Of a stretch of DNA of 52,102 nt, positions 13,033 through 48,231 are shown piece after piece. The notes under the pieces were generated by a model, which made no database searches, was not told the DNA's origin, and saw nothing but the letters and a program-made list of their open reading frames with translations. A program made the translations under genes and the position numbers. Position 1 is the first letter of the stretch, and the number at the start of each line of letters is the position of its first letter. The DNA is from Rickettsiales bacterium (GTDB lineage: Bacteria > Pseudomonadota > Alphaproteobacteria > Rs-D84), in the NCBI GenBank assembly GCA_031288835.1, contig JAITQO010000016.1, positions 74,167 through 126,268 of the forward strand, in the 5' to 3' direction.

Positions 13033-13038
13033 CGTATT

Positions 13039-13234
13039 GTCTCTTGAAAACAGGGATTAAGGCATAGTTGGTGAGGTCGGCTTAGAACACCGAAACATTG
13101 CACTGATTCTATGTCCTGGCTCATGGTCAGGATGTCGCCATTCGCAAGACGGCGAGGTCATCAATGTTTGACTGTTCTAACTCCTGACCACCTCTAACTG
13201 GTGGTCTTTTCTTTTATGGAAAAAGGGGGAGAAA
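13039..13234 (+). promoter_or_regulatory. Structured 5' leader copy L2 (upstream of PAP2 phosphatase)
   Basis: P1 TCCTGGC-TCATG-GTCAGGA (13114-13132). P2 TCGCC-ATTCGCAAGAC-GGCGA (13135-13155). Duplicated arm TCCTGACC (13182-13189) overlaps terminator GACCACC-TCTAACT-GGTGGTC plus TTTTCTTTT (13186-13215). SD GGGGGAG follows. Confidence 0.75.
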
Positions 13235-13765
13235 ATGTCAAGACTTAGAACTCTTGGCGCGGTCTTTGTCTGTTCGGTGCTGATAACGGCGAACGAAGTT
13301 TTCGCCAAATCGGCCATTGGAAGGCTCGGCGACCTTACGCAGGTCATAATTCCCGCGTATGCGTTCGGAATGGCCATGAATGAGAAAGATTGGAATGGCG
13401 CCGGACAATTCATATATTCGTTTGGAATGACGGAAATAAGCGTCTTCGGATTGAAATCCATAGTGGATGAAAAAAGACCCGACGGCAGTGATAAGAATTC
13501 GTTTCCCAGCGGGCATGCCGCGGCCGCTTTCAGCGGCGCGACTTTCATTCATAAAAGATACGGAATTAAAAGGGCGATTCTTCCTTATCTGATGGCCGGG
13601 TTTACGGGGTATTCGAGAATATCCGCCGACAAGCATTATTTGCACGATGTGGTCGCCGGCGCGGTGATAAGTGGATTGTTTACTTGGATTTTTGTTGATA
13701 AATATGGCGTTCAGGTATCGGCGGGTCCAGAGTTTATAAAAGTTGGGTTCAGGACAGAGTTTTAA
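13235..13765 (+). CDS. PAP2-family phosphatase with signal peptide (paralogue 1)
   Basis: KRPDGSDKNSFPSGHAAAAF ... SRISADKHYLHDV gives the three PAP2 motifs (KxxxxxxRP, PSGH, SRxxxxxHxxxD). Only 176 aa, N-terminal signal peptide, C-terminal F. Confidence 0.85.
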   Translation: MSRLRTLGAVFVCSVLITANEVFAKSAIGRLGDLTQVIIPAYAFGMAMNEKDWNGAGQFIYSFGMTEISVFGLKSIVDEKRPDGSDKNSFPSGHAAAAFSGATFIHKRYGIKRAILPYLMAGFTGYSRISADKHYLHDVVAGAVISGLFTWIFVDKYGVQVSAGPEFIKVGFRTEF

Positions 13766-16697: not shown

Positions 16698-17155
16698 TAA
16701 AATCAGGACAGCAGGTGGCTCTGAACCGCAGGGCGCGGTTCGATTACGCAATCGAGGATACCGTCGAGGCGGGGTTGTCCCTTACGGGCGCGGAGGTGAA
16801 GTCAATCCGCTATGGCCTGGTTTCCCTGGCCGATTCGTTCGTGCATTCGAAAGGCGGCGATTTGGTTGTGAAAAATATGGCGGTTGCCCCGCTGTCGACC
16901 GCGAACAAGGCGGTCCGGTTCGACGAACGCAGGGACAAACAGCTGCTGCTTCACAAGAACCAGATGAACAGGCTGCGCGGCAAACTGATTGAAAAGGGCG
17001 CGACAATCGTGCCTTTGAAATTGTATTTCAACAACCGCGGGATTATAAAGGTTTTGCTGGGCGTCGGGTTTGGAAAGTCCAAAATCGACAAGCGCGAGGT
17101 AATCAAAAGGCGCGAATGGCAGCGCGACAAAGCGCGGGTTATGAGAAAATCGTGA
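16682..17155 (+). CDS. smpB: SsrA-binding protein
   Basis: NRRARFDYAIEDTVEAGLSLTGAEVKSIR, typical SmpB. Its tmRNA partner is at 40067-40380. Confidence 0.92.
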   Translation: MPRQIIKSGQQVALNRRARFDYAIEDTVEAGLSLTGAEVKSIRYGLVSLADSFVHSKGGDLVVKNMAVAPLSTANKAVRFDERRDKQLLLHKNQMNRLRGKLIEKGATIVPLKLYFNNRGIIKVLLGVGFGKSKIDKREVIKRREWQRDKARVMRKS

Positions 17156-17234
17156 TTCGCTGTTTGTGAATGTGGTTTCGCGGTGCATGTAACGTCATTT
17201 CTCCCGCTTCCTTCTTTTTTGTCGTTCCATTGCG

Positions 17235-17504
17235 CCCTTCTCCTTGTCATTCCCGCGAAGGCGGGAATAGGGTCTTTCAACCTATATGCAAAAACTTTGT
17301 TCAAATGACAACGGAATGCGCAAGCATGCAGCAAGATGCATTTGTTCCCTGCACAATGTTATTCGCTCTTCGTTATACGTTCTCTAGAAAGACGGCTTGC
17401 TTCGCTCTCGGTTTTATAGACCCTATTCCCGCCGGAGTTTACCCCCGCGAAGTCGGGGGCGGGAATGACAAGTATAAAAAGTGGTGGAAAGACAAGGAGA
17501 AGGG
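17235..17504. mobile_element. MITE-like repeat, copy A
   Basis: A perfect 14-bp terminal inverted repeat, CCCTTCTCCTTGTC (17235-17248) / GACAAGGAGAAGGG (17491-17504), encloses GTCATTCCCGCGAAGGCGGGAAT palindromes. The interior is shared with 30086-30522 and, inverted, 35075-35300. No coding capacity. Confidence 0.75.
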
Positions 17505-17650: not shown

Positions 17651-17656
17651 TACGCC

Positions 17657-17901
17657 GGAATCCAAAGGGATTTGGGTTCGGGACTGTTAGAAGTCCTTTG
17701 TGTAAGCGGTGCAGAAGCACTGATATCTGAATAAAATATCAACCGCTTTCTGCATTGAGATTATCCCCCGACTGTGGTCGGGGAGCCGCGGTATATAAAA
17801 TACGACAAGCCGAAAAACCGCGGAGTCATTCTTACACATGATTTCTAAACTCCCCGACCGCCAATTCCGTTGACGGTTTTTTTACGACAAAAGGGGGAAA
17901 A
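17657..17901 (+). promoter_or_regulatory. Structured 5' leader copy L4 (upstream of secreted Cys-rich protein)
   Basis: GCACTGA block. P1 TCCCCCGAC-TGTG-GTCGGGGA (17764-17784). Long P2 CCGCGG...CCGCGG (17786-17823). GATTTCTAAAC, then duplicated arm TCCCCGACC (17851-17859) overlapping terminator ACCGCCAA-TTCC-GTTGACGGT plus T7 (17857-17883). SD GGGGGA. Confidence 0.7.
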
Positions 17902-18402
17902 ATGAAAACAACCGGGGCATTCATTTTGATTTTGACATTCGCGTTAATTGCCGGTACCGCATCGGCGGAAAGGTTGTGCCAATTGGATTGGTTCGAGGCG
18001 TGGAAGAACGCGAGCGGCGCGTTGTCTAATTATAGAACGTCGAATAGCCGGGGTGACTATGATAATTCTACTAGTAACGGAGGGATGGGAACATGGGCGG
18101 TAACGTCCGACCAGGGGAGCGCGGGAGTGTATCATACGGTATCGGGGCAATCATTTTGTTCAAGCGTAGGTAATGGCACATTTACTAATTGGTCTCCTGA
18201 TTTTGATACATCTATATCATCAAACAACAAGTATTGTTGGTGTAGAATGACAAGTCCGAACCTTGGCGGGTCTTGGGCGTTCTTGGGCGACTATGGTTCG
18301 GCAGCTGATTGCGCGATCGACTGCGCGCTCCACTGCGCGAATTGTGTTCGGAGCGGCGCGGACGGCTCGTGCAACCGCTCCGCCGTCCTGGCGCTGCCGT
18401 AA
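17902..18402 (+). CDS. Secreted Cys-rich protein, CWCR family paralogue 1
   Basis: Signal peptide MKTTGAFILILTFALIAGTASA. C-terminal block YCWCRMTSPNLGGSWAFLGDYGSAADCAIDCALHCANCV is shared with the convergent neighbour. Confidence 0.75.
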   Translation: MKTTGAFILILTFALIAGTASAERLCQLDWFEAWKNASGALSNYRTSNSRGDYDNSTSNGGMGTWAVTSDQGSAGVYHTVSGQSFCSSVGNGTFTNWSPDFDTSISSNNKYCWCRMTSPNLGGSWAFLGDYGSAADCAIDCALHCANCVRSGADGSCNRSAVLALP

Positions 18403-18482: not shown

Positions 18483-18980
18483 TCAATCACTTGTTTTGTT
18501 CGCAGGCGCTTGACAAAGCTTGGCGCGGAAGTCGGAACTGAGGCTGACGTAATTCACGCAGCTGCTTGCGCAAAACTGGGCGCAATAGGGCGCCGAATCA
18601 TAATCGCCCAAGAACACCCATGCGCCCGAAAGGCCCCCGTTCTTTATCCGGCACCAGCAATGCCGGCCCTTGTCCGCCTTCGGCTTGTCTATATCCAGGT
18701 ATGTTCCGCCCGTGCCCGAACATCTCGAATTTCCACGCGCCGTCACCGGTGCTCCGGCGCGTCCCCACGGGCCGCTCAATTTCCATGTTCCTTCCGCGGC
18801 ATCCTTGCTGTAATCGTAAACGTTTCCGTTTCCGTCTCCGCCGCGCGCCGCATTCTCGATTATCGGACACGCAAAGCCTACGGCCTCTTTTCGTGTGACT
18901 TCGCCGCACGCGGCTGCCAGAAGGCATAGCGCCGCTGCGATTGCTTTCCGCATCGAAATACATTTTTCTGTTTTTTTCAT
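18483..18980 (-). CDS. Lipoprotein, CWCR family paralogue 2
   Basis: Lipobox LLAAAC (the start may be the internal MRKAIAA at 18953). HCWCRIKNGGLSGAWVFLGDYDSAPYCAQFCASSCVNYV aligns with the 17902 protein. Confidence 0.75.
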   Translation of the reverse strand: MKKTEKCISMRKAIAAALCLLAAACGEVTRKEAVGFACPIIENAARGGDGNGNVYDYSKDAAEGTWKLSGPWGRAGAPVTARGNSRCSGTGGTYLDIDKPKADKGRHCWCRIKNGGLSGAWVFLGDYDSAPYCAQFCASSCVNYVSLSSDFRAKLCQAPANKTSD

Positions 18981-29433: not shown

Positions 29434-29763
29434 TCATTTCGTCGGGCCGCCGCGAATCGCGCCGCGCCGCGCCAGCCTGTGCTCGACGTAACTTTCTATC
29501 AGATGCGATTCCGGGTGCTTGTTCGTCCCTATTCCTTCGAGGTCCAGCAGGTTTTTTATGGATGCTTTTATATCCTCGCGCAGGTCGGCGCCCGCCTTCG
29601 CGACGCCGGCCTTGGATTCCAGCACCCTGCTTTCTATCAGGTCTAGATAATCCTCCATGGCGTCGTCATTGGACTGAATCGCCAAAAACACGTCGTCGAC
29701 GATATTCTTGATGATGTATCTGTTTACTATTTTTCTTGCGAATTCATCGGTATCTTTTGCCAT
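29434..29763 (-). CDS. Hypothetical protein
   Basis: 109 aa, no signal peptide. AAAGGTGGAAA SD region. Preceded by leader-like element L6. Confidence 0.55.
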   Translation of the reverse strand: MAKDTDEFARKIVNRYIIKNIVDDVFLAIQSNDDAMEDYLDLIESRVLESKAGVAKAGADLREDIKASIKNLLDLEGIGTNKHPESHLIESYVEHRLARRGAIRGGPTK

Positions 29764-29946
29764 TTTGTTTCCACCTTTTGGTTGTTTGTTATGTGTCCTA
29801 AAAAGGCGGCGGGATTTTGAAACAATCGTAGTCGAACGACCCCGCCGTATAACCGGCGCAATCCCGCCACTGCGGGATAGTATTGTCTGCGCCTATCCGT
29901 GCGCATCGACCACGAGATGTTTCAAGTCTCGGTTCCTTTCGGATAC
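29764..29946 (-). promoter_or_regulatory. Leader-like element L6 (divergent relative of L1-L5)
   Basis: Reverse strand: TATGAT box. Long-range TATCCG...CGGATA pairing. GACAATACTATCCCGC-AGTG-GCGGGAT P1 (29861-29878). Hairpin GCGCCG-GTTATA-CGGCG. GATTGTTTCAAAATCCCGCCGCC repeats the P1 5' arm and is followed by T5 (29800-29815). Confidence 0.45.
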
Positions 29947-30085
29947 GCGTTAATCATAACACGCGGCGAAGCGAAAGTGAAATGAAAAATTAGGGGAAAG
30001 GGACGAGAGACAAGGGATGGGGAAAGCGACAGAACAGAGTGACGCAGTGACGAAGTGACAAAGTTTGAGTCATTCTTTCCTACCT

Positions 30086-30522
30086 CTTTCTCCTTGCCAT
30101 TCCGCCACTTTTTATACTTGTCATTCCCGCCTGTCTCCTTGTCATTCCCGCCCCCGCCTCCTTGTCATTCCCGCGAAGGCGGGAATAGGGTCTTTTAACC
30201 TGCACGCAAAAACTTTGTTCGAGCAATGGAAGAATGCATAAGCAATTAAAATGCGCAAGCATGCGGCAAGGTGCGCTTGTTCCCTGCACATTGTTGTCTG
30301 CTTTACTATTATTCGTTCTTCGTTATCTGTTCTATAAAATAAAAGATGGTTCGCTTCGCTCACGGTTTATAGACCCTATTCCCGCCTTCGTGGGAATGAC
30401 AAACCATTCGGGTTTGTTTTGGTTTTCGTTTCCGCTCCTTTCCCCTTGTTATTCCCGCCGGAGTTTACCCCCGCGAAGGCGGGGGCGGGAATGATAAGTG
30501 CAAAGAGTGGCGGAATGACAAA
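30086..30522. mobile_element. MITE-like repeat, copy B (composite, with triple tandem CCTTGTCATTCCCGCC)
   Basis: Shares the GTCATTCCCGCGAAGGCGGGAATAGGGTC ... GACCCTATTCCCGCC core with copy A. Terminal modules CCACTTTTTATACTTGTCATTCCCGC (left) and GCGGGAATGATAAGTGCAAAGAGTGG (right) are inverted. Three tandem about 21-nt units lie at 30117-30174. Confidence 0.7.
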
Positions 30523-40066: not shown

Positions 40067-40380
40067 AAGAGCGCCCGATTCTGTTGCCGGGTTCGGGCGG
40101 ACCCCGCGATGCGCGTAACGATGCTTTGACCAATCGGCCTCCGCATCAAGCCAATTTAGGCGGCCATCGCAAGGCGAACGTTGTCGTTCGCAGGAATGTT
40201 TTTAGCATTCATTTAACGGTTTTTTCGGAAACCACTCCGGAACACAAGCGTTGCCTTTCAATCCCTGTCGAATCTATGTCAGCCCCGTAAACAAATCAAT
40301 TGGTGGAGCTGTGGGGTGCCGCCCCCCAGTCCAAAAGACCTATTGCACAGCGCACTCAGTGTCATCTTCGCCGAAGCGAC
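40067..40380 (-). ncRNA. ssrA: Two-piece (circularly permuted) tmRNA gene
   Basis: Reverse strand: TATAAT (40387-40392). Acceptor piece ends GGGGGGCGGCACCCCACAGCTCCACCA (CCA at 40301-40303). Short spacer. Coding piece starts GGGGCTGACATAGATTCGACAGGG (5' end 40286). Tag reading frame GCG AAC GAC AAC GTT CGC CTT GCG ATG GCC GCC TAA = ANDNVRLAMAA (40156-40191). Terminal hairpin plus CTCTTT near 40067. Confidence 0.8.
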
Positions 40381-40473
40381 ATTCTTATTATAGCGCGCGC
40401 CGGCCGAATTTTCAAGCGCCCGGAAAATATCCTGGACAGGCGTTCCGAATAATTGTTATCATAAAGCGTTTAA

Positions 40474-45631: not shown

Positions 45632-47365
45632 TCATTCCGCGCCCCCTATCACCGCCTTGATTCTGCGGACGCCCGCGGCGGACGACTCCTCCTTCACAAT
45701 CTTGAAGCGCCCGATGTCGCCCGTGTTTTCGACGTGCGGGCCGCCGCAGATTTCCATGTCGTATCCTTCGATTGTGTATACCTTGACCATTCCGCCGTAT
45801 TTGTCGTCGAATATTCCGACGGCACCCGACGCGCGCGCCCGGCCGATGGGCAGGTTTTCGCAGACGACGGGGATTTTTTTATCAATCGCGTCGTTGACGA
45901 TTTCCTCAACCTTTGCGATTTCTTCCGGCGTCAGTTTTCTGTCGAACGAGAAGTCGAACCGCGTCCGTTCGGCCGTGATGTTCGCGCCGCGCTGAAACAC
46001 CGATTCGCCCAGCACTTTGCGCAGCGCGCCGTGCAGCAGGTGCGTAGCCGTGTGCAGCTTTGTCGTTTCGACGCTGTTGTCCGCGAGGCCGCCTTTGAAC
46101 TTCTGTTCGGCGCCCGCCCGCGATTTCTCCTGGTGCTCGGCGAACAATCTGTCGAATCCGGCCTTGTCGACGGAGATATTGCGTTCGGCCGCCAGTTCCT
46201 GCGTTAATTCCAGCGGAAATCCGTAGGTATCGTATAAATGGAACACATTTTCGGCGTTCAATTCGCCGTTTTCTATGTATTTTTTCGCGATGCGGAGACC
46301 GGTTTCGAGCGTGCGGCCGAACAATTCCTCCTCGCGTTCCAGCTGTCTGGCGACAAAATCTCGATTGCGCGCCAATTCCGGATAAACGTCGCCATAGTTT
46401 TCGATAACGACCTCGGCAATTTGGCGCATTGCAAGTTTCGGCGCACCCAGTTGATTCAGGTAGCGATACGCGCGGCGAATCAGTCGGCGCAAAATATAGC
46501 CCTGGTCCACGTTCGACGGGCCGACCGCCTTGTCGTCGCCCAAAATGAACGTCGCGGCGCGCATGTGGTCGGCGATAATGCGGAATGCGCGCAATGTCGC
46601 GTCTTCGCCATACTTTTTGCCGGTCGATTTTTCTATTTTTTTGATAATCGGGACAAAAAGCTCCGTGTCGAATACGCTTTCCGCGCCGGTAAGAACCGCC
46701 AGAGTGCGTTCCAATCCCAGCCCGGTATCCACGTTTTTTTGAGACAAAGAGGTGTATTTCCCATCCGCGTCCTTGTAATATTGCATAAAGACGTCGTTCC
46801 AAATCTCCACTTTTTCCTTGCCGGTGCCATAGAACATTTCGGTGTCGGGCCCGCAGGGTCCCGTTGTTCCGGCAGGGCCCCACCAGTTGTCGGCCTTCGG
46901 CAGAAAACTAATTCGTCCGTCCGGATAGCCCAGCGACCGCCACGCGTCCGCCGCCTCGTCGTCGCGCGGCGCGTCGGCGTCGCCCACAAAACACGTCACG
47001 GAAATCTTTTCCTGCGGGATTTTCAGAACTTCGGTCAGAAATTCATGGCTCATTTCCACCGCTTCTTTCTTGAAATAGTCGCCGAGAGACCAGTTGCCCA
47101 TCATTTCGAAGAACGTCAGGTGCGTGGCGTCGCCGACCTCGTCGATGTCTCCGGTGCGGAGGCACTTTTGACAGTCCACCAGGCGTTTGCCCATCGGATG
47201 CGGCTCGCCAAGCAGATACGGCACCAAGGGATGCATTCCGGCCGTCGTGAACAAGACGCTCGGGTCGTTTTCCGGTATCAGGGACGCGGACGGAATTTCC
47301 CTGTGCCCCCGCGCCGAAAAAAAGTCTATATAAAGTCTCCGCAATTCTTTTGCCGTCATTTTCAT
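45632..47365 (-). CDS. alaS: Alanine--tRNA ligase, compact form (577 aa)
   Basis: [24 protein letters not shown], and editing-domain HTATHLLH and CGGPHV. The protein ends about 20 aa after the editing domain, so there is no C-Ala domain. Confidence 0.9.
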
Positions 47366-47471
47366 TCCTCTGCAATTCGGCGCATTCTACTAATTATACG
47401 CGGAGATGTCAAACTTAGTTTAAACCTGGCGCGGGACAACATAATTCGTTTTACTTTTCAGATTTTTATAT

Positions 47472-47477
47472 TATAAT
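47472..47477 (+). promoter_or_regulatory. -10 box TATAAT for leader L3
   Basis: TATTATAAT about 205 nt upstream of the PAP2 paralogue 2 start. Confidence 0.4.
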
Positions 47478-47483
47478 GGATAT

Positions 47484-47682
47484 TGATGCAAGCTGGTTGC
47501 CTGTGTTGGGGTGTAGTTACCTCGCAGAAAGCGTCCGTAGACGATAAATACTCCTTATGCCATGGCAAGGAGGGTGACAGAATAAATCGAATATGTCACA
47601 CAATTCTTTCTGATTGTAACTAACCTCCTGCCACCAGAACCATTCCGGTGGCTTTTAATTCCGCCGGCAAAGGAGGCGCAAT
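47484..47682 (+). promoter_or_regulatory. Structured 5' leader copy L3 (upstream of second PAP2 phosphatase)
   Basis: GCGTCCGTAGACG hairpin. ATACTCCTTATGCC-ATGG-CAAGGAG P1 (47551-47572). P2 GTGACA-GAATAAATCGAATA-TGTCAC (47574-47599). GATTGTAACTAACCTCCTGCC (47624-47632) overlaps terminator GCCACC-AGAACCATTCC-GGTGGC plus TTTT (47630-47656). The real RBS GGCAAAGGAGG mimics the P1 3' arm. Confidence 0.72.
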
Positions 47683-48231
47683 ATGTCCGTCAAAAAAAAC
47701 GTATTTGTCATATTGCCGCTTATCGCGGCGATAAGCGGGGCCGAGGCGCGCAAAAATCCCTATGCCGCGGAAATAATGAAAATCGGCGATTTTATAAAAA
47801 ATATTTCTTGGGTATACGCATACGGAACCGCACTGTATCACCGCGACAAGCTGGGCGCGCTGGAATATTTCGTCGCCGACGGGCTTGCGAGGCAAACGTC
47901 TTCGTTCCTGAAACGCAATGTCGATGAATCAAGGCCGGACAAATCGCAAAACGACAGTTTTCCTTCGGGGCATGCGACAACCGCCTTTTCAATGGCGACC
48001 TTCATCCACGCGAGATATGGGATTGAAGAAGCAATCGTTCCGTATGTAATGGCGACATACGTCGGATTTTCGCGGGTATACGGCAGGCGCCATTATATTC
48101 ACGACGTGGTCGCCGGCGCGGCCATCGCCGGCATGTTTTCATGGATAATCGCGGACAAATATCCAGACAAAAAAATAACGCTGTCGGCTGATTCGGAACA
48201 TGTGTATCTGGGATTTTCAACAATGTTTTAA
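47683..48231 (+). CDS. PAP2-family phosphatase with signal peptide (paralogue 2)
   Basis: SRPDKSQNDSFPSGHATTAF ... SRVYGRRHYIHDV. 182 aa, with the same architecture and C-terminal F as 13235..13765. Confidence 0.85.
   Translation: MSVKKNVFVILPLIAAISGAEARKNPYAAEIMKIGDFIKNISWVYAYGTALYHRDKLGALEYFVADGLARQTSSFLKRNVDESRPDKSQNDSFPSGHATTAFSMATFIHARYGIEEAIVPYVMATYVGFSRVYGRRHYIHDVVAGAAIAGMFSWIIADKYPDKKITLSADSEHVYLGFSTMF

Follow-up and report, generated by a model that had tools for sequence, protein, structure and literature searches.

The interval 47484-47682 of a 52,102-nucleotide (nt) stretch of DNA from a Rickettsiales bacterium (contig JAITQO010000016.1; the whole stretch is hereafter called the window) lies upstream of the second of two genes for PAP2 proteins, PAP2b, and is a genuine, highly structured leader RNA. 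We refer to it as leader E, one of the leader copies in the window that are named A, B, C, D, E and F. It is flanked by the divergent gene of a short alanyl-tRNA synthetase (AlaRS; 45632-47365, -) and by the PAP2b open reading frame (ORF; 47683-48231, +), which starts with the ATG at 47683 and encodes a protein of 182 amino acids (aa) with an N-terminal signal-like segment and a Pfam PAP2 match (8.3e-18); against NCBIfam the protein gives sub-threshold matches only, to undecaprenyl-diphosphatase and LpxE models. The first gene, PAP2a (13235-13765, +), is likewise assigned to PAP2 by Pfam, and the two paralogues are 47% identical.

A consensus scan places a sigma-70-like promoter at 47450-47477 (+), with a -35 element TTTACT (47450-47455) and a -10 element TATAAT (47472-47477) that are separated by a 16-nt spacer and match the consensus at 10 of 12 positions. 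Judged by this promoter-like box, the transcript of leader E would start near 47484. A comparable TTGxxx-N17-TATAAT box was seen by eye at a similar distance from the copies of the window and from those of two related genomes, L009 and L172.

Read 5' to 3' on the forward strand (+), the leader begins with the P0 hairpin (GGGGU-GUAGUU-ACCUC, 47508-47523), whose loop and first 3' stem bases (UAGUUAC, 47514-47520) supply the 5' strand of a pseudoknot. A second small hairpin (CGUC-CGUA-GACG, 47532-47543), read from the sequence, is followed by an A-rich linker and has counterparts, also found by reading, in copy B (CGUCA-GGCA-UGACG) and in copy L9a of L009 (GUCA-GUGA-UGAC). The competitor arm a5 (CUCCUUAUGCC, 47551-47561) contributes what an earlier, sequence-only reading of this DNA had quoted as its P1 5' arm (CTCCTTATGCC) and pairs in the minimum-free-energy (MFE) fold with the decoy GGCAAGGAGG as an alternative hairpin. 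The decoy (47564-47573, with A47568 bulged) is also c5, the 5' strand of a closing helix, of which the 3' strand, c3, is the anti-Shine-Dalgarno (anti-SD) segment (CCTCCTGCC / CCUCCUGCC, 47624-47632, then ACCA at 47633-47636). Enclosed by the two strands are P2 (47574-47599; a GUGAC/GUCAC stem with the 16-nt loop AGAAUAAAUCGAAUAU), P3 (47600-47617; an ACAAUU/GAUUGU stem with the loop CUUUCU) and the joining strand J3/1 (AACUAA, 47616-47623), within which GUAACUA (47616-47622) forms the 3' strand of the pseudoknot. Then come the terminator hairpin GCCACCAGAA-CCA-UUCCGGUGGC (47630-47652; arms GCCACC at 47630-47635 and GGTGGC at 47647-47652), its U tract UUUUAAUU (47653-47660; TTTTAATT directly after GGTGGC) and the ribosome-binding site (RBS) GGCAAAGGAGG (47666-47676), which equals the decoy but for one additional A; from the U tract to the PAP2b ATG there are only 22 nt. 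The bottom 3 base pairs (bp) of the terminator stem are made with the last 3 nt of c3. A simple terminator scan misses this hairpin, which has a loop of more than 8 nt when read as a perfect 6-bp stem. The fold of the whole leader is better than that of dinucleotide-shuffled sequences (z = -3.5, 0 of 200 as good). The sequence-only reading was thus accurate on the inventory: the P1 5' arm, decoy, anti-SD, terminator arms and RBS are all there and in place, and the anti-SD does double as the 5' arm of the terminator through the overlap of c3 with the stem bottom.

Covariation of the junction and its pseudoknot

The strands c5 and c3 close a three-way junction with P2 and P3 that is present in all copies of the family. 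SD-mimicking switch arms had been thought peculiar to two leaders, L3 (leader E) and L5, of the sequence-only reading; the c5:c3 helix proves instead to be family-wide, as are a purine-rich c5 and a pyrimidine-rich c3, which also appear in the Rfam consensus of sRNA-Xcc1 (GgCcGGggG/CccCCgGcC). The helix begins with GG in all 14 family copies (GGU in nine, GGC in four, GGG in one) and is followed by RCC in 11 of the 14 and by RCCA in nine. The P3 arms of the family are of a conserved GGUCA...UGAUU type, with ACAAUU and GAUUGU in E; the apical part of P2 ranges from 9 to 33 nt among copies, and the P2 loop motif of E, GAAUAWAUYGAMU, is common to B, L9a, L9b and L9c.

For the junction, 13 copies were aligned by hand with N padding (MAFFT on whole leaders misaligned the helices). 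All 247 cells of this alignment that should pair hold standard pairs, and 19 of 23 pairs are changed on both sides (six of seven in P2, all six in P3). The covariation score is 0.614, compared with 0.188 after shuffling (0 of 500 shuffles reach the observed value), and slid controls pair at no more than 58%. Since this alignment was fitted by hand, we added duplex tests that are independent of any alignment. Cognate c5:c3 duplexes average -16.5 kcal/mol against -10.3 kcal/mol for non-cognate ones (0 of 20000 permutations), and cognate a5:c5 duplexes -12.5 against -7.4 kcal/mol (0 of 20000 permutations). With a cognate preference in both duplexes, a5, c5 and c3 covary three ways; c5:c3 is the more stable of the two in 13 of 14 copies and equal in the fourteenth. 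ORFs that start in the P1 loop change together with compensatory stem substitutions, which places the conservation at the level of the RNA.

The loop of P0 is complementary, over 6-9 nt in every copy, to J3/1, the strand just 5' of c3. Duplexes between the 5' domain and J3/1 average -7.4 kcal/mol for cognate and -4.8 kcal/mol for non-cognate combinations (0 of 50000 permutations). MAFFT broke the short pseudoknot alignment, and pairs were counted by script on extracted segments: all nine positions are changed on both sides, and when partners are re-dealt pairing reaches 65% on average and 82.5% at most. The facing segments are UAGUUAC (47514-47520) and GUAACUA (47616-47622) in copy E, UUAGUAAU and GUUACUAA in B, UUAGAACA and UGUUCUAA in C, UUAAAGCA and UGUUUUAA in A, UUGAAACA and UGUUUCAA in F, and UUUGAAAAG and UUUUUCAAA in L172a; in L177 (UUAGAAAC and GUUUCUAA) there is a compensatory one-base insertion relative to copy C. 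The earlier picture of three competing segments (decoy, anti-SD and true RBS) stands insofar as these are mutually complementary and c5:c3 covaries, and was incomplete in lacking the a5 competitor and the P0:J3/1 pseudoknot.

Membership and subfamilies of the leader family

Searches with nhmmer and sequence patterns, with copy F added by a covariance model, give six copies in the window, one more than the five counted before. Two covariance models were used: R2, built from 11 family copies with E included and F outside the training set, and R3, built from A, C, D, L9d, L9e, L171, L172a and L172b together with F, and thus without any copy of the subfamily of E (subfamily I). R2 scores 47564-47638 of leader E at 36.9 bits (E value 3e-6; window, filters off) and recovers all 13 copies then known, two of them outside its training, as well as copy F; on 2.13 Mb of unrelated control loci it gives no match at an E value of 1 or below. 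The junctions fall into two groups, one of A, C, D, L9d, L9e, L171, L172a and L172b, to which F is similar, and one of E, B, L9a, L9b and L9c. R3 detects the five copies of the second group, all over their full length and where they were expected (L9a 29.8 bits, L9b and L9c 20.5 each, E 20.3 with an E value of 0.028 in 108 kb, and B 18.0). Because a model trained without its subfamily finds it, E is a reduced member of the same leader family as A, C and D. Its P2 loop GAAUAAAUCGAAUAU, carried on a 5-bp stem, looks like what the P2 internal loop of the longer copies would become on losing the inner stem.

Both PAP2 paralogues accordingly carry a leader of one family, the models matching C as well as E, and these leaders belong to two subfamilies, with junctions only 31% identical, much as the sequence-only reading had it. 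What did not hold is the idea that the two leaders diverged along with the paralogues. Each has its closer relatives among the leaders of unrelated genes (for E the nearest is copy B, at 59%), and their placement on separate branches of the family means that C and E did not co-diverge with the proteins.

The remaining copies of the window differ in what follows them. Copy A (5647-5836, -; junction 5756-5691) precedes an ORF (5233-5646) for a Cys-rich product of 137 aa whose N-terminus has a hydrophobic segment, copy C (13034-13234, +; junction 13125-13189; R2 47.1 bits, R3 72.6 bits) precedes PAP2a, and copy D (17652-17901, +; junction 17776-17859; R2 56.8 bits) precedes a 166-aa Cys-rich secreted protein (17902-18402). 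Copy F (about 29764-29960, -; junction 29868-29808; R2 33.5 bits) lies upstream of a 109-aa ORF (29434-29763) that has no N-terminal hydrophobic signal-like segment and whose product, from its sequence, is likely cytoplasmic; F has no separate terminator hairpin, its closing helix being followed directly by GCC and five U, and its 3' end resembles that of the Rfam Xcc1 consensus. Copy B (6351-6533, -; junction 6449-6380) is an orphan: its P2 is degenerate, it lacks a U tract, and no ORF lies between it and a tRNA at 5919-6000. The c5 of B (GGCAGGAGG) is a perfect 9-nt complement of the c3 of E, where the own c5 of E is bulged; copy B may be on its way to decay, or it may be an RNA in its own right, in cross-talk with E.

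Most copies have a hairpin and U tract overlapping c3, and upstream of every copy read there is a promoter-like box. The start codon, where there is one, comes in most copies roughly 20-50 nt past the U tract, and by reading no room was seen for a separate promoter in between.

Several further features accompany these copies. The Cys-rich secreted proteins (17902-18402, +; 18483-18980, -; L171 4602-5315, -) share a C-terminal CWCR...C..C...C motif and match neither Pfam nor NCBIfam; two members stand behind D-type leaders. Clusters of GC-rich palindromic repeats of the GTCATCCCGCG...CGCGGGAT type occur at about 16950-17330 and 30080-30500 of the window, at 9700-9900 of L009 and at 5340-5430 of L171; they give spurious ORFs with PAFAGMT-like translations, and some sit between a leader terminator and its gene. 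The window also holds a permuted alpha-type transfer-messenger RNA (tmRNA; 40070-40419, -; 152 bits), and in L171 the tmRNA lies directly upstream of the leader copy.

Distribution in relatives and the link to PAP2

Eleven further copies were found at distinct loci in four related gut alphaproteobacterial genomes, so that copies are known from the source genome and four relatives only (L009, L171, L172 and the L177/L178-L183 loci). L009 (isolate Gx481_bin12) has five copies in 19 kb, in front of a PAP2 gene adjoining smpB, a YadA-anchor protein and three small or uncertain ORFs; L172 has two (L172a and L172b); and L171 has one, a D-type leader kept upstream of the orthologue of the Cys-rich protein that follows D. 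Three other genomes, L009, L177 and L178, retain a C-type leader ahead of a PAP2a-type gene, which lies between rplY and dnaK in L177 (PAP2a orthologue 70% identical) and in L178-L183 (63%). Housekeeping genes are found in these neighbourhoods (AlaRS, smpB, L25/dnaK). The window AlaRS is a short form of 577 aa whose homologues at 64-81% identity come from uncultured gut genomes labelled Rickettsiales or Alphaproteobacteria and whose best homologues are gut metagenome-assembled genomes; those at 66-69% include several labelled Clostridiales or Oscillospiraceae, the closest named ones being labelled alphaproteobacterial, which suggests mis-binning or gene transfer.

Beyond these genomes the element was not seen. 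About 21 kb each of L007, the genome nearest by AlaRS (81%), and of L010 were covered and hold no copy, and the PAP2 gene of L007 has no leader; neither do 79 other AlaRS loci from GTDB genomes hold a copy, so that the AlaRS-anchored GTDB scan gave no element-bearing genome beyond L009. No leader precedes the PAP2 gene at 83 loci of more distant homologues (at most 49% identity, other lineages), nor the closest PAP2b homologues of a PAP2-centred search (at most 42% identity), and a metagenome scan with the PAP2 alignment returned only distant homologues (at most 49%), none with a leader. A PAP2b identical to the present one is encoded on a contig of SRR14710895. The syntenic AlaRS / 165-aa gene / HU locus of L007, L009, L010 and L173 lacks both PAP2b and leader E; compared with these four relatives, leader and gene look inserted together between AlaRS and the 165-aa gene, in the manner of a cassette.

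The sequence-only reading had taken the association with PAP2 to be functional and had named PAP2 orthologues without a leader as evidence to the contrary. The association is genuine for PAP2a, whose orthologues at 63-70% identity keep the leader in a comparison in which the smpB-side PAP2 gene of L009 (40% identical to PAP2b) also has one, while the 83 distant loci and L007 do not. The leader itself is not PAP2-specific, because unrelated genes follow other copies: the genes behind the family encode PAP2, Cys-rich secreted and YadA-anchor proteins, small ORFs and the 109-aa ORF, with none behind B. As to the proteins, the short PAP2 proteins of this clade, like their homologues, have F or W as the last residue (codons 48226-48228 and 13760-13762 in the window), preceded by a beta-strand-like pattern, and this aromatic C-terminus resembles the C-terminal signature of outer-membrane proteins.

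Relation to sRNA-Xcc1, C4 and other regulatory RNAs

The small RNA (sRNA) family sRNA-Xcc1 (RF02221) is annotated in many proteobacterial genomes, prophages and integrons and is described in the literature as a trans-acting sRNA; we know of no mechanism established for it. It was found in Xanthomonas as an RNA of about 88-100 nt (PMC2996969), has several copies per genome in Xylella (PMC12189769) and occurs upstream of symE in integron cassettes (10.1101/2025.06.18.660453). We regard the core of the leader as a distant, divergent and shortened relative of this family. A scan of the window at Rfam gathering thresholds returns tmRNA and tRNAs only, with no family reaching its cut-off on any leader, and a scan of the leader E region by E value gives no relevant Rfam family. 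Below the RF02221 cut-off of 53 bits, matches fall over exactly the junction in D (41.2 bits, E value 3.4e-6 in 271 nt; the best sRNA-Xcc1 match in the window), L172b (46.2 bits) and L9b (28.1 bits); copy E has no Xcc1 match at an E value of 10 or below in a 341-nt search. True E. coli prophage members score 79.6-79.8 bits on the same model. In the reciprocal direction R2 reaches one of them (L175, 2486-2567) at a weak 21.4 bits (E value 0.055), co-extensive with its Rfam match (79.8 bits), and misses the other, in L176; R3 finds neither.

The likeness lies in the three-way junction, where P2 and P3 are enclosed by a GG...CC closing helix of 7-10 bp with a purine-rich 5' strand, J3/1 is rich in U and A, and RCC forms the tail. 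In the longer copies D, L172a, L172b and L9e (UAUAAAACA/AAAG) there is a counterpart to the P2 internal loop of sRNA-Xcc1 (AUACAAUA/GAA), and the inner P2 stem of D-type copies is capped, as in Xcc1, by a stable tetraloop (GNRA, as in GUC-GCAA-GAC of L172b, or UUCG in L9e); in copy E, P2 is reduced to 5 bp and the 16-nt loop. Either kind of RNA sits, in multiple copies per genome (PMC12189769), a short way upstream of a gene of the same orientation and has its own promoter. Among the phage and prophage records, Xcc1 has a promoter in front of it and, some 40 nt after it on the same strand, an ant, KilA-N, BRO-N or ORF6N gene. The complementarity between an upstream hairpin loop and J3/1, which is absent from the Rfam model, recurs in true Xcc1 leaders (CUCAAAA:UUUUGAG in E. 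coli, Acinetobacter and Moraxella phages; UCGAAA:UUUCGA in Aaphi23). What sets the present family apart is a covarying competitor and a canonical terminator over the closing helix, no covarying competitor having been found in the phage Xcc1 leaders, and its chromosomal context of envelope and secreted-protein genes of gut alphaproteobacteria rather than integron cassettes (symE) and prophage antirepressors. D-type and phage Xcc1 leaders have an extra hairpin with a U run (...UUUUUUAUG...) upstream of the junction (L171 5560-5590; L172 13895-13915 and 150-175, -; L175 2428-2462), which looks like a first terminator inside the leader. Past the junction of the E. coli prophage Xcc1, a second hairpin repeats the CUCAAAA loop and is able to pair with J3/1.

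The c4 RNA of phage P1 acts on the icd-ant mRNA. RNase P excises it at GG from a leader, it pairs with the RBS region of the downstream gene, and multi-copy bacterial expansions of C4 are known (PMC5320573). C4 (RF01695; phages P1 and P7, with isrK) resembles the family in its closing stem with two hairpins, its GG start and a partner site upstream in the transcript, and one E. coli prophage has C4 (77.4 bits, as a control), isrK and Xcc1 in the same region. The two loops of C4, however, pair with the RBS region, whereas the loops of the family have no cognate-specific RBS complementarity, and the window gives no match to the C4 model.

Four-segment trp-type attenuators and ON riboswitches share with the family the logic of a5, c5, c3 and the terminator 3' arm, which can pair either 1:2 and 3:4 or 2:3. 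Unlike them, the family has no conserved leader peptide and no T-box, PyrR-type or known riboswitch match, and its antiterminator is a large, conserved, pseudoknotted junction, not a simple hairpin. Leader-peptide attenuation of the trp type was considered and rejected: in five copies the frames that end at the TAA of J3/1 are open for 2, 26, 2, 29 and 48 codons, with no shared start. SD-sequestering switches, finally, recall E in that c3 (CCUCCU) can pair with an SD-like decoy or the true SD, the near-identical GGCAAGGAGG and GGCAAAGGAGG; they differ in that here a terminator lies between switch and RBS and a5 also pairs with the RBS, which makes a purely translational reading ambiguous. The claimed pairing of anti-SD and true RBS is strongest in E, where c3:RBS reaches -13.2 kcal/mol, the best value of its matrix row and column; across 10 copies cognate pairs are modestly better than non-cognate ones (p = 0.017), which supports the translational idea weakly; a5 can pair with the same RBS.

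A candidate attenuation mechanism and its alternatives

Our preferred reading, at about even odds, is that leader E acts in cis as a transcription attenuator with an Xcc1/c4-like fold. E has what such an attenuator needs: a promoter, pairings for antiterminator and terminator that exclude each other, a U tract, and a gene without a promoter of its own. The core of the switch would be the three-way junction of c5:c3, P2 and P3, with the P0 loop clamping J3/1 as a pseudoknot. In the ON state, the full junction would act as the antiterminator, its closing helix holding the last 3 nt of c3; these are also the bottom of the terminator stem, beside the U tract, and we propose that polymerase would, with them held, read into PAP2b. 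In the OFF state, a5 would capture c5 in a simple hairpin, c3 would be freed, the terminator would form and transcription would stop; in transcripts that escape, the free CCUCCU of c3 could mask the SD. The two folds of E are isoenergetic, at -29.4 kcal/mol for ON (junction enforced) and -29.9 kcal/mol for OFF (c3 barred from upstream pairing), and the two states lie within 1.5 kcal/mol of each other in 5 of 13 copies and within 9 kcal/mol in all 13. The helices and their covariation, the mutually exclusive overlaps, the near-equal energies and the arrangement of the gene are observed; regulated switching, in the direction drawn here, is what we infer. As its trigger we favour a cellular factor that would recognise or process the conserved junction over a metabolite linked to PAP2, because the same element fronts functionally unrelated genes.

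Several points weigh against attenuation. The model is built on sequence and folding. Closing helix and terminator overlap by merely 3-4 nt, and the MFE fold of E keeps the inner closing helix together with a complete terminator, so that antitermination would not be guaranteed. Copy F lacks the terminator hairpin, and copy B both U tract and gene. The P0:J3/1 pseudoknot could form in the ON and OFF states alike. The a5 of E is itself complementary to the RBS (centroid fold), which might then be masked in the ON state too. Alignment and pseudoknot segments were chosen by hand, and the pairing figures of 100% are in part so by construction.

The main rival, a different use of the same structure that we consider unlikely though worth serious thought, is a c4-like processed antisense RNA. 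RNase P would cut the junction out at the GG of the closing helix, the 3' end would be that of the terminator or U run, and the released RNA of about 100 nt would base-pair in cis or trans, through J3/1 (freed from P0) or c3, with the P0 loop or the RBS of transcripts sharing its 7-9-nt address. A closing stem with two hairpins upstream of the controlled gene in the same transcript fits this, as do the invariant GG (14 of 14) and the RCC (11 of 14) or RCCA (nine of 14) that follows the helix, even though the RCC tail is also the GC-rich 5' arm of the terminator and may be conserved for that reason. So does the behaviour of sRNA-Xcc1 itself, which Northern blotting and end mapping showed at about 88-100 nt (PMC2996969) and which is placed in phages about 40 nt upstream of ant, KilA-N, BRO-N and ORF6N, with isrK and C4 preceding it in one E. 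coli prophage. The P3 loop of Xcc1 in two E. coli prophages (L175 2486-2612 and L176 2486-2610) is complementary over 7 nt to the RBS of the BRO-N/ORF6N gene, with a compensatory difference between them (CUUUGCA:UGCAAAG and CUACUUG:CAAGUAG). In the family, by contrast, cognate preference is not significant for P3 loop:RBS (p = 0.20), P2 loop:RBS (p = 0.31) or J3/1:downstream (p = 0.10), no Rfam C4 match occurs in the window at an E value of 1 or below, the covariation of a5 with c5 is left unexplained, and what speaks for RNase P processing are sequence prerequisites. The P0:J3/1 sequence does differ in each of the six window copies, as orthogonal addresses would, and a bolder form of the idea, which we rate as improbable, would make the copies genome-wide, self-addressed c4-like riboregulators: P0:J3/1 would be a private code of 7-9 nt by which each envelope gene is autoregulated independently, the junction being freed by RNase P and its J3/1 pairing in trans, and only with the nascent P0 of the same locus, to block the pseudoknotted ON fold.

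Attenuation by a cellular factor must also be set against a small-molecule or ion riboswitch, in which the pseudoknotted junction would be an aptamer and the ligand, for example an ion or nucleotide signal related to envelope stress, would stabilise the closing helix and turn the gene ON. The layout is of the ON type: junction and pseudoknot are compact and covary, and the terminator overlaps with the closing helix. The ON and OFF energies are balanced, and there are conserved unpaired stretches in the P2 loop (AUAUAAnA...GAA) and J3/1 (UU..AA). Against a ligand, the downstream genes do not resemble a metabolite regulon, being diverse in function and including, in phages, antirepressors and symE; P0:J3/1, the tertiary contact that is conserved best, consists of ordinary Watson-Crick pairs and differs in sequence from copy to copy, so that it offers no conserved pocket; and the apical part of P2 is of variable length, with no Rfam riboswitch family matching. 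We think this very improbable, and no less so that the leader is unregulated, a dispersed cassette of promoter and structured 5' untranslated region, or an sRNA gene with a leaky terminator, in which the alternative pairings are incidental. The density of copies (six in 52 kb here, five in 19 kb of L009), the orphan B, the inserted appearance of PAP2b and its leader relative to four syntenic relatives and the travels of Xcc1 relatives in integron cassettes and prophages (10.1101/2025.06.18.660453) speak for such a dispersed cassette. Yet a three-way covariation of a5, c5 and c3 would be hard to keep without selection on both pairings, and leaders stay with their orthologues at genus-level divergence (AlaRS 74-78%, PAP2a 63-70%) while their helices compensate; on reading the loci, with no systematic search made, no terminal repeats or target-site duplications were seen.

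Implications

PAP2 is one client of this leader element, and PAP2 chemistry is not the reason why the element exists. One type of leader stands ahead of lineage-specific envelope and surface genes (PAP2 lipid phosphatases, Cys-rich secreted proteins and an adhesin anchor) in uncultured gut alphaproteobacteria. In these genomes an Xcc1-type junction is seen in a clear leader layout of promoter, junction, overlapping terminator, RBS and gene, and its P0-loop:J3/1 pseudoknot, which lies outside the Rfam model, is shared by true phage Xcc1 leaders. Were the self-addressed reading true, sRNA-Xcc1 would be an unrecognised immunity-type RNA over phage ant, KilA-N, BRO-N and integron symE. For the widespread, orphan sRNA-Xcc1 family, the leaders described here provide a concrete cis-regulatory model that can be tested by mutation.

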